DNA from: Eledone cirrhosa
Taxonomy: Eukaryota
Direction of reading: 5' to 3'
NCBI GenBank assembly: GCA_964016885.1
Contig: OZ024741.1
Coordinates: 273,358,001 to 273,422,000, forward strand
DNA length: 64,000 nucleotides
The notes under the pieces were generated by a model. That model was not told the DNA's origin. It searched no databases and worked only from the letters and a program-made list of their open reading frames with translations. Position numbers and translations under genes: made by a program. Shown piece after piece: positions 17,861-25,370 of the stretch (position 1 is the first letter of the stretch; each line of letters begins with the position of its first letter).

Positions 17861-17882
17861 ATTTATTAAAATAACAGATTAA

Positions 17883-17933
17883 AGTTTAAGCAAAGAATCG
17901 CTGCTTTCACCCTTAACGGGATCTTCTGAAACT
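17883..17933 (-). ncRNA. HHR-like motif of the 406-bp unit (first copy; CAGAAGA core)
   Basis: Minus strand reads agttt CAGAAGA t-ccc-gttaa-ggg-t GAAA gca-gcgattctt-tgc T T aaact. Confidence 0.7.
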
Positions 17934-20301
17934 AACAAAGTCAATCTGTAAACGCAGAACTGGATATTTCAAAAAACGTTGCAACCGGAGGAAGACAGGA
18001 AGACGATACTTTGGTTCGTGGTAACGTTCGCTGGCAAAGAACGCGAAAAAACGAATGTATCAGGAGTTTTAGGTATGTTTTCCTGCTTGGTACGGGTATG
18101 TTCTTTGTAGAAATATTCAGATGTTATTTCTGCATGATGAATATAAGTCAGGAGAGTGCTCAACCGAAGGAGCCAAATAGTAATAATAATAAAATTGAAG
18201 ACTAAAATCCAAAGAGGGCTCGATAAGGAAAATATATATCAAATATATAAGAACCGTAGAGCAAATATTTATTAAAATAACAGATTAAAGTTTAAGCAAA
18301 GAATCGCTGCTTTCACCCTTAACGGGATCTTCTGAAACTAACAAAGTCAATCTGTAAACGCAGAACTGGATATTTCAAAAAACGTTGCAGCCGGAGGAAG
18401 ACAGGAAGACGATACTTTGGTTCGTGGTAACGTTCGCTGGCAAAGAACGCGAAAAAACGAATGTATCAGGAGTTTTAGGTATGTTTTCCTGCTTGGTACG
18501 GGTATGTTCTTTGTAGAAATATTCAGATGTTGTTTCTGCATGATGAATATAAGTCAGTAGAGTGCTCAACCGAAGGAGCCAAATAGTAATAATAATAAAA
18601 TTGAAGACTAAAATCCAAAGAGGGCTCGATAAGAAAAATATATATCAAATATATAAGAACCGTAGAGCAAATATTTATTAAAATAACAGATTAAAGTTTA
18701 AGAAGAGAATCGCTGCTTTCACCCTTAACGGGATCTTCTGAAACTAACAAAGTCAATCTGTATACGCAGAACTGGATATTTCAAAAAACGTTGCAACCGG
18801 AGGAAGACAGGAAGACGATACTTTGGTTCATGGTAATGTTCGCTGGCAAAGAACGGGAAAAAACGAATGTATAAGGAGTTTTAGGTATGTTTTCCTGCTT
18901 GGTACGGGTATGTTCTTTGTAGAAATATTCAGATGTTGTTTCTGCATGATGAATATAAGTCAGTAGAGTGCTCAACCGAAGGAGCCAAATAGTAATAATA
19001 ATAATAAAATTGAAGACTAAAATCCAAAGAGGGCTCGATAAGGAAAATATATATCAAATATATAAGAACCGTAGAGCAAATATTTATTAAAATAACAGAT
19101 TAAAGTTTAAGCAAAGAATCGCTGCTTTCACCCTTAACGGGATCTTCTGAAACTAACAAAGTCAATCTGTAAACGCAGAACTGGATATTTCAAAAAACGT
19201 TGCAACCGGAGGAAGACAGGAAGACGATACTTTGGTTCGTGGTAACGTTCGCTGGCAAAGAACGCGAAAAAACGAATGTATCAGGAGTTTTAGGTATGTT
19301 TTCCTGCTTGGTACGGGTATGTTCTTTGTAGAAATATTCAGATGTTGTTTCTGCATGATGAATATAAGTCAGTAGAGTGCTCAACCGAAGGAGCCAAATA
19401 GTAATAATAATAAAATTGAAGACTAAAATCCAAAGAGGGCTCGATAAGGAAAATATATATCAAATATATAAGAACCGTAGAGCAAATATTTATTAAAATA
19501 ACAGATTAAAAGTTTAAGCAAAGAATCGCTGCTTTCACCCTTAACGGGATCTTCTGAAACTAACAAAGTCAATCTGTAAACGCAGAACTGGATATTTCAA
19601 AAAACGTTGCAGCCGGAGGAAGACAGGAAGACGATACTCTGGTTCGTGGTAACGTTCGCTGGCAAAGAACGCGAAAAAACGAATGTATCAGGAGTTTTAG
19701 GTATGTTTTCCTGCTTGGTACGGGTATGTTCTTTGTAGAAATATTCAGATGTTGTTTCTGCATGATGAATATAAGTCAGTAGAGTGCTCAATCGAAGGAG
19801 CCAAATAGTAATAATAATAAAATTGAAGACTAAAATCCAAAGAGGGCTCGATAAGGAAAATATATATCAAATATATAAGAACCGTAGAGCAAATATTTAT
19901 TAAAATAACAGATTAAAAGTTTAAGCAAAGAATCGCTGCTTTCACCCTTAACGGGATCTTCTGAAACTAACAAAGTCAATCTGTAAACGCAGAACTGGAT
20001 ATTTCAAAAAACGTTGCAGCCGGAGGAAGACAGGAAGACGATACTCTGGTTCGTGGTAACGTTCGCTGGCAAAGAACGCGAAAAAACGAATGTATCAGGA
20101 GTTTTAGGTATGTTTTCCTGCTTGGTACGGGTATGTTCTTTGTAGAAATATTCAGATGTTGTTTCTGCATGATGAATATAAGTCAGTAGAGTGCTCAACC
20201 GAAGGAGCCAAATAGTAAATGAAGACTAAAATCCAAAGAGGGCTCGATAAGGAAAATATATATCAAATATATAAGAACCGTAGAGCAAATATTTATTAAA
20301 A

Positions 20302-23675: not shown

Positions 23676-23706
<31 letters not shown>
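20302..23706 (+). mobile_element. CR1/L2-group LINE, 5'-truncated in ORF1; ORF2 (APE endonuclease + RT) at 20632-23410 with one frameshift near 22000; (TTA)n tail
   Basis: LNARSL, TETW, GDFN, LDL, SDH; NYRPVSLTS, YLDFAKAF, GVPQGSVLGP, YADD, RGH. The frameshift is at a cagctttcttttt duplication. The 3' UTR has an internal repeat and a ttattatta tail. Confidence 0.95.
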
Positions 23707-23708
<2 letters not shown>

Positions 23709-25370
23709 AGTTTAAGAAGAGAATCGCTGCTTTCACCCTTAACGGGATTTCTGAAACTAACAAAGTCAATCTGTAAACGCAGAACTGGATATTTCAAAAA
23801 ACGTTGCAACCGGAGGAAGACAGGAAGACGATACTTTGGTTCGTGGTAATGTTTGCTGGCAAAGAACGGGAAAAAACGAATGTATCAGGAGTTTTAGGTA
23901 TGTTTTCCTGCTTGGTACGGGTATGTTCTTTGTAGAAATATTCAGATGTTGTTTCTGCATGATGAATATAAGTCAGTAGAGTGCTCAACCGAAGGAGCCA
24001 AATAGTAATAATAATAAAATTGAAGACTAAAATCCAAAGAGGGCTCGATAAGGAAAAGATATATCAAATATATAAGAACCGTAGAGCAAATATTTATTAA
24101 AATAACAGATTAAAGTTTAAGCAAAGAATCGCTGCTTTCACCCTTAACGGGATCTTCTGAAACTAACAAAGTCAATCTGTATACGCAGAACTGGATATTT
24201 CAAAAAACGTTGCAACCGGAGGAAGACAGGAAGACGATACTTTGGTTCGTGGTAACGTTCGCTGGCAAAGAACGGGAAAAAACGAATGTATCAGGAGTTT
24301 TAGGTATGTTTTCCTGCTTGGTACGGGTATGTTCTTTGTAGAAATATTCAGATGTTGTTTCTGCATGATGAATATAAGTCAGTAGAGTGCTCAACCGAAG
24401 GAGCCAAATAGTAATAATAATAATAAAATTGAAGACTAAAATCCAAAGAGGGCTCGATAAGGAAAAGATATATCAAATATATAAGAACCGTAGAGCAAAT
24501 ATTTATTAAAATAACAGATTAAAGTTTAAGCAAAGAATCGCTGCTTTCACCCTTAACGGGATCTTCTGAAACTAACAAAGTCAATCTGTAAACGCAGAAC
24601 TGGATATTTCAAAAAACGTTGCAACCGGAGGAAGACAGGAAGACGATACTTTGGTTCGTGGTAACGTTCGCTGGCAAAGAACGCGAAAAAACGAATGTAT
24701 TAGGAATTTTAGGTATGTTTTCCTGCTTGGTACGGGTATGTTCTTTGTAGAAATATTCAGATGTTGTTTCTGCATGATGAATATAAGTGAGTAGAGTGCT
24801 CAATCGAAGGAGCCAAATAGTAATAATAATAAAATTGAAGACTAAAATCCAAAGAAGGCTCGATAAGGAAAATATATATCAAATATATAAGAACCGTAGA
24901 GCAAATATTTATTAAAATAACAGATTAAAGTTTAAGCAAAGAATCGCTGCTTTCACCCTTAACGGGATCTTCTGAAACTAACAAAGTCAATCTGTAAACG
25001 CAGAACTGGATATTTCAAAAAACGTTGCAACCGGAGGAAGACAGGAAGACGATACTTTGGTTCGTGGTAACTTTCGCTGGCAAAGAACGGGAAAAAACGA
25101 ATGTATCAGGAGTTTTAGGTATGTTTTCCTGCTTGGTACGGGTATGTTCTTTGTAGAAATATTCAGATGTTGTTTCTGCATGATGAATATAAGTCAGTAG
25201 AGTTGCTTAAACTTTAATCTGTTATTTTAATAAATATTTGCTCTACGGTTCTTATATATTTGATATATATTTTCCTTATCGAGCCCTCTTTGGATTTTAG
25301 TCTTCAATTTTATTATTATTACTATATATACATATATATATATTTATATATATATTTATATATACACACA

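Follow-up and report, generated by a model that had tools for sequence, protein, structure and literature searches.

The window analyzed here, a 64,000 nt stretch of Eledone cirrhosa DNA, contains a tandem array of ten 406-bp units on the minus strand, which match each other to 97% and are split into two blocks by a 3.4-kb LINE (Table 1). Repeat and ORF analysis confirmed the core of the first-pass annotation, which had described a 406-bp tandem array with an ATG in each unit: ten ATG starts are present and a 64-aa micro-ORF is open in 8/10 units, the other two reading 39 aa and 3 aa. The extent given earlier (17861..25325) holds for the two array blocks, whereas the stretch between them is the LINE and the last part is an inverted arm, of a sort typical for insertions of Penelope-like elements (PLEs).

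Table 1. Features of the 406-bp array and its flanks, with positions in the window; p numbers refer to the parent element.
Feature	Position	Strand	Remarks
(TA)n target microsatellite, 3' end of the element	17148..17866		array ends at p198
3' block of the array, six 406-bp units	17859..20302	-	6.0 copies
LINE with AP endonuclease and RT domains	20312..23703	+	(TTA)n tail; inserted just 3' of the unit 4 hammerhead
5' block of the array, 3.7 units	23704..25203	-	5'-truncated at p306
Inverted arm, 123 bp	25203..25325	+	p164-p286 of the parent pLTR
(TA)n target microsatellite, other end of the array	25323..26315
Example unit: first 21 codons	18479..18541	-	p328-390; 3' strand of the predicted helix
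Example junction: ORF p407 to pLTR p1	18456..18469	-	one shared A
Example unit: pre-hammerhead pLTR	18358..18415	-	p48-105; 5' strand of the predicted helix
Example hammerhead-like motif, type I	18289..18339	-	CAGAAGA core; predicted cleavage after p169
Example C(UUCG)G bulged hairpin	18158..18173	-	~25 nt upstream of the ATG; inherited from the parent
Example 64-aa micro-ORF	18347..18541	-	parent codons, then read-through into the pLTR

A search of the animal's own genome identified the parent of the units as a PLE with a monomer of 3,259 bp. Many near-identical copies match half of the unit and then run into a long ORF, which is intact at 709 aa in copy L046; the full-length parent that the first-pass annotation had proposed to look for is thus present in the same genome. 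We number the parent from p1, the base where the pLTR part of the unit starts. This places the hammerhead core at p129, the ATG at p328 and the ends of insertions at p198 or p286. The unit corresponds to p1-407, with ~2.85 kb of the parent missing, and each copy fuses codon 27 of the ORF to the pLTR upstream of the hammerhead. Over 3,584 compared bases the ten units differ from L046 at 44, a divergence of 1.2%. The earlier description of the unit as an internally deleted PLE, with its first 27 codons fused to the pLTR and the cis signals kept, is therefore correct, as is the claim that its N-terminal peptide matches the PLE starts within the window. With at least 3,920 pLTR matches in the genome, the parent family is large.

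The window PLEs had been labeled Naiad, and this label had to be given up. According to the accessible text of Craig et al. (PMC8557442), Naiad elements are defined by a GIY-YIG domain N-terminal to the RT, a DKA motif, a CxC linker and the absence of a canonical hammerhead, while Hydra-clade PLEs have a C-terminal EN without the CCHH motif, RWK-like, DKT, CxCx5C, CxxC and CxH motifs, (TA)n targets and a canonical hammerhead in the pLTR. The parent protein shows RWR at residue 37, DKT at 115, YRDD at 346, IVY...YIG at 583 of 709, CDLC at 662 and CKH at 690. Its GIY-YIG domain is thus C-terminal to the RT, the motif is DKT and not DKA, and both pLTRs carry a hammerhead-like motif. The CxCx5C motif is present in 6/6 family copies checked and mutated in L046, and the targets are (TA)n, as in the Hydra clade. 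Reading by eye for the CCHH motif showed a single Cys inside the GIY-YIG core. U-flanked stem II and the U cleavage site of the hammerhead are likewise common among Hydra hammerheads. Unlike the Hydra-clade elements described in that source, the parent has a monomer of 3.26 kb instead of <3 kb and an A at position 4 of the hammerhead core (A4). Judged by these motif features, the parent is a Hydra-clade PLE; Pfam returned no significant match on either Hydra protein of the window, that of the array parent or that of a second family.

This second Hydra-clade PLE lies at 25899-32801, apparently as one insertion, with an intact 713-aa ORF at 27420-29561, CTGATGA cores at 27245 and 32750, and a palindromic inverted arm at 25899-26011. 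Its ORF start has 75 matches in the genome, and one of these 75 copies has a join similar to that of the array: at L165:1919-2176 a run of ~20 A connects codon 18 with the pLTR ahead of the hammerhead, and this copy is a mini-element of another make. Broken Hydra-like PLE copies from other families occur at two more places, 3237-5342 (+) and 14888-15964 (-). A separate 310-bp tandem repeat at 38331-40004 consists of 4.5 identical copies and an inverted arm in (TA)n. Near-identical arrays of it occur on many contigs, with >20 units at one locus, and it shares a 14-nt CTGATGA-containing word with the hammerhead of the second Hydra family; of the two repeats, it is the one that more closely resembles an established non-autonomous PLE family. 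The window also holds a gene-like overlapping ORF pair of 172 and 516 aa at 42498-44542 (-), with an apparent frameshift near 44040, which presumably resembles DUF229 proteins, and a 42-bp minisatellite at 44826-45619 with 19 copies, open in frames on both strands. The solo relatives of the array reported at 49-54 kb proved to be pLTR fragments (p13-198, p132-198, p214-286 and p259-284), none of which crosses the deletion junction. At 50507-50900 and 53253-53430 palindromic inverted-arm junctions are located in (TA)n, by eye like the 3' side of L046; they are likely the ends of yet another PLE family.

Within the array the p407-p1 junction is identical in 10/10 units. In a genome search it was found elsewhere only at one C9 locus, of a different and older haplotype, while other loci have nearby but different junctions, and no contig among those listed bridges the exact junction of the window. 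Restricted to the window and this one locus, the exact junction did not spread as a family. Looking for the junction at other loci, as had been suggested, thus gave a divided answer: the class of junction recurs at ~60 loci, but the exact one is close to unique. One more junction of this class lies on a contig from another sample, whose kind is unrecorded.

The junction class was sampled in several ways. In a search anchored at the ORF start, 620 copies were found and 100 listed; by eye, nine of the listed rows (eight loci) leave the ORF, all exiting by p414 and all entering p1-50 (clustering p=0.002). Apart from the window, searches without the ORF anchor yielded 13 long-range joins, of which 10 come from p374-410; one of these searches used a filter that disfavors hot-spot sequence and so gives no rates. 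Most junction loci come from two targeted patterns with 16 and 39 matches. As these patterns bound both junction sides within 30-35 nt, the fraction of breakpoints in the loop described below and the x-y anticorrelation are inflated. Altogether 65 junction loci were examined, 62 with the ORF side at p374-432 and three elsewhere. The 61 loci resolved among the 62 represent 44 distinct junctions, with units of 319-437 bp. Loci that share a junction mostly differ in parent haplotype, as do the window and its C9 twin, and hence the births are largely independent; a few same-junction pairs (L134/L149, L019/L021) are compatible with mother and daughter. At 52 of the 65 loci the element ends at p198 or p286 on (TA)n, like a fresh insertion.

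Some simple sources of the junction were considered. Splicing or back-splicing was rejected since there are no GT-AG ends at p1 on either strand, and a transcription start at p1, though it may exist, became superfluous once joins at p34-54 were found. A stall at p275-315, where 30/69 junction arms start, does not discriminate as a sign of a second lap, since family copies also break in this region: by eye, ~40 of the 100 listed copies, mostly not known minis, are 5'-truncated or inverted at p279-328. These 50 nt, which surround the p286 end and the UUCG hairpin (for example 18135-18184 in the window), can be read as a strong RT stop or an RNA 5' end.

The position of the breakpoints coincides with a predicted structure of the parent RNA. 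A long helix is predicted between p48-105, just upstream of the hammerhead, and p328-390, the first 21 codons. Beneath it lies an internal loop, with p-2 to p47 opposite p391-417, followed by a second, weaker predicted helix whose top is p1. On each side, 59/61 breakpoints fall in this loop or at its edge (p389-418 and p-3 to p54), a range that the targeted patterns partly limit. In a post hoc test the duplex was better than 995 of 1,000 synonymous recodings and than all 1,000 UTR shuffles; a GU-rich window of the 3' UTR pairs with the ORF start equally strongly (-37.5 vs -34.3). The pairing may be local or between the two ends of the full monomer, and either yields the same junction.

An independent test of the helix used 79 loci from one metagenome scan, of which 31 families were kept after removal of loci with no recognizable start, with no hammerhead preceded by enough sequence, or with a duplicate peptide. 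The pre-hammerhead segment pairs better with the ORF start of its own family than with those of other families (-18.7 vs -12.9 kcal/mol, 28/31 families). After thinning to 11 distant Hydra families (<60% identical over 40 residues) the values were -29.0 and -18.7 kcal/mol, and the preference held in 11/11 by either measure, energy or Watson-Crick score. As controls, three other ORF windows of these 11 families were null by energy; one of them reached p=0.04 on the Watson-Crick score. Synonymous recoding made the pairing weaker in 10/11 families. Distant relatives thus also appear to keep the predicted stem. The second Hydra family of the window gave no helix signal in the pairing test. Three of the metagenome contigs (L197, L219, L250) contain circularly permuted Hydra monomers, as expected of tandem or circular elements.

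We consider it probable, at roughly 0.6, that the array is a non-autonomous mini of a Hydra-clade PLE, born by an RT jump across the loop at the base of the predicted helix and then expanded locally in DNA. RT would start at p198 or p286, copy through the hammerhead and then the 5' strand of the helix, reach the loop at p-2 to p47, and land on the opposite strand at p391-417 via pairing of 1-3 nt. Such a jump would remove the ~2.85 kb and leave one perimeter of the RNA domain; it would not require hammerhead cleavage, and its template could be the intact RNA or an RNA with fixed ends, shortened down to the helix. In a Poseidon PLE, RT initiates inside the pLTR-ORF junction RNA and needs the ORF start, while hammerhead cleavage is dispensable, according to the accessible text of Frangieh et al. 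(PMC11167929). With these data in view, the helix may serve RT initiation and the minis may be a by-product.

The sequence at the junctions bears on how the two ends were brought together. Microhomology at the distinct junctions averages 1.40 nt, compared to 0.64 nt expected, and 0/10,000 draws reached the observed mean; 36 of the 43 distinct blunt junctions have 1-3 nt and none has more than 3 nt. Both the excess and its upper limit suggest a polymerase jump rather than an RNA ligation. A ligation, which predicts no microhomology excess, is at the center of a different and rather unlikely explanation, in which the helix-closed RNA is cut out at the loop, ligated to a covalent circle of 340-410 nt and copied by the PLE RT as a rolling circle, the joint being the loop and not the hammerhead site. 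Such a circle would account for the same junction in both arms at 6/7 two-arm loci, among them L122, where neither arm can copy the other, and for the repetition of one junction in the tandem units of L006, L146, L147 and the window, apart from a 1-nt variant in one L146 unit. For the RT jump, these repeated single junctions call for a fixed-end template, a circle or the RNA of an earlier mini copy. However, only 5/62 junction loci have more than one tandem junction, the window included, with two or three in each of the other four. Moreover, L016 continues beyond the junction into parental sequence at p-35 and also has inverted mid-ORF sequence, and the two arms of L154 have different junctions; these patterns indicate jumps during insertion and speak against the circle.

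The short microhomology also fits end-joining, and microhomology-mediated PLE deletions have been reported (PMC3846280, in its accessible part). The deletions could accordingly have been made in DNA, through slippage at the inverted repeat or end-joining there, while insertion took place or later, with the array as an ordinary satellite grown from one such copy. We regard this as improbable: the junction shared by the inverted arms at six loci must predate or accompany insertion, microhomology never exceeds 3 nt, and most loci end on (TA)n like fresh insertions. A role of DNA-level processes is nevertheless supported for the growth of the array in the window. In p1-172 the ten units have seven shared variants and three private ones, with incompatible patterns; one of the variants, p13G, is present in six units and at no other fetched locus. 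Hence at least part of the growth appears to be DNA-level duplication or conversion, and under the RT jump reading the array would have expanded after its birth by local duplication and conversion of this kind.

The first-pass annotation had reported a hammerhead-like motif and a hairpin in each unit. The CAGAAGA...GAAA core is present in 9/10 units, the unit at 23753 having a 1-nt core deletion, and stem III is altered in two of the ten; a CTTCG hairpin is found upstream of 9/10 ATGs, two of them as CTTCGA. The hammerhead-like motif was identified by anatomy and position. An Rfam search of 17900-19100 gave no hammerhead match, even with the threshold relaxed to E<=10, and among the 150 Rfam matches listed for the whole window there is only microsatellite-driven miRNA noise. 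The motif lies 199 nt before the ATG, compared to 169-222 nt in the metagenome relatives, which have CTGA cores at the matching place. Array units and parent share the core CAGA, and genome-wide only 91 copies have a base other than A at position 4, with G, C and T about equally frequent. U4 is a conserved position of the hammerhead core, and because the parent family has A there, its hammerhead activity may be low. The hairpin does not appear to be conserved, with CTTCGG upstream of the ATG in only 3/59 junction loci. A functional micro-ORF was rejected as well, as 50 junction loci have an ATG, divided 17/16/17 among the three frames, and encode peptides of 20-75 aa; at 1.2% divergence from the parent, eight open micro-ORFs out of ten would be unremarkable.

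These observations weigh on the earlier proposal that the array belongs to an established retrozyme family, whose tandem transcript self-cleaves at the hammerheads to a 406-nt circle and which spreads in its own right. Size, tandem layout and a type I motif in each of the ten small repeat units are those of a retrozyme and agree with the operational definition in the accessible text of 10.64898/2026.07.22.740005. However, the same monomer is not dispersed, with the exact junction at only one other locus, on another haplotype, and p13G private to the array, and the conserved CUGANGA core of retrozymes is replaced by the A4 core, whereas all 26 Hydra rows in File S2 of Craig et al. (PMC8557442) carry CTGA. 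The unit as a whole, although it contains one long helix, is not more stably folded than shuffled sequence (z -0.9 circular, -1.3 linear), and 8/9 elements tested did not cleave in the accessible results of 10.64898/2026.07.22.740005. Given A4 throughout the family and a micro-ORF with no sign of selection, a self-cleaving circular retrozyme is unproven, and we consider an established retrozyme family very unlikely.

The array nonetheless shares features with metazoan non-LTR retrozymes as described in the accessible parts of PMC7229834 and 10.64898/2026.07.22.740005, namely short tandem repeats, a type I hammerhead motif per unit and kinship with PLE pLTRs. It differs from them in its 27 coding codons, the A4 core, the lack of spread as one monomer family, and in that the exact parent and the birth junction are visible. 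An origin of retrozymes from PLE pLTRs has already been proposed in these two sources; the route suggested in the latter is local amplification of the terminal repeat, not a jump from ORF to pLTR. A second likeness is to the SIDEs of R2 and R1, short internally deleted non-LTR derivatives that keep ribozyme and priming end (PMC3414825, accessible part), just as the unit, p1-407 joined to the pLTR, combines an internal deletion with both cis-acting ends. A template jump is one route proposed there for SIDEs. They are rare, old, single-origin lineages with tested ribozymes, whereas the minis described here were born in at least 44 ways at one predicted structural site, and none of them is shown to have persisted as a lineage. 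MRC1 and other non-autonomous Chlamys PLEs (PMC8557442, accessible text) also have pLTRs and multicopy head-to-tail insertions, but belong to another clade and kingdom, are similar mainly at the 3' end and have no hammerhead. No mention of non-autonomous Hydra derivatives or of a pLTR-ORF helix was found in the accessible text of PMC8557442, and no account of the helix and the recurrent junction hot spot in the open-access literature; supplements or Repbase entries may hold such minis. The array is a young mini-PLE, both SIDE-like and retrozyme-like; what makes it valuable are the recurrent births and the conservation of the predicted helix.

An RT hop across the base of the predicted helix would be a repeatable route to small ribozyme-bearing repeats. 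More tentatively, and with less confidence than in the origin of the array itself, the helix could close the RNA into a pseudo-circle and set a protein-binding site at the ORF start beside the RT starts, so that hops at its base repeatedly yield rod-like, ribozyme-bearing mini-elements of 340-410 nt, which would be the mechanistic origin of animal non-LTR retrozymes. Tandem copying of PLEs and the origin of animal retrozymes have so far been addressed mainly by co-occurrence and sequence likeness. The family described here provides a parent, independent birth junctions by the dozen and a candidate RNA structure from which the places of the breakpoints can be predicted, so that the origin of retrozymes can be tested with a single purified protein and mutants of the helix. 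That so prolific a PLE family has A4 in its hammerhead core also bears on the question of whether PLE mobility needs cleavage.
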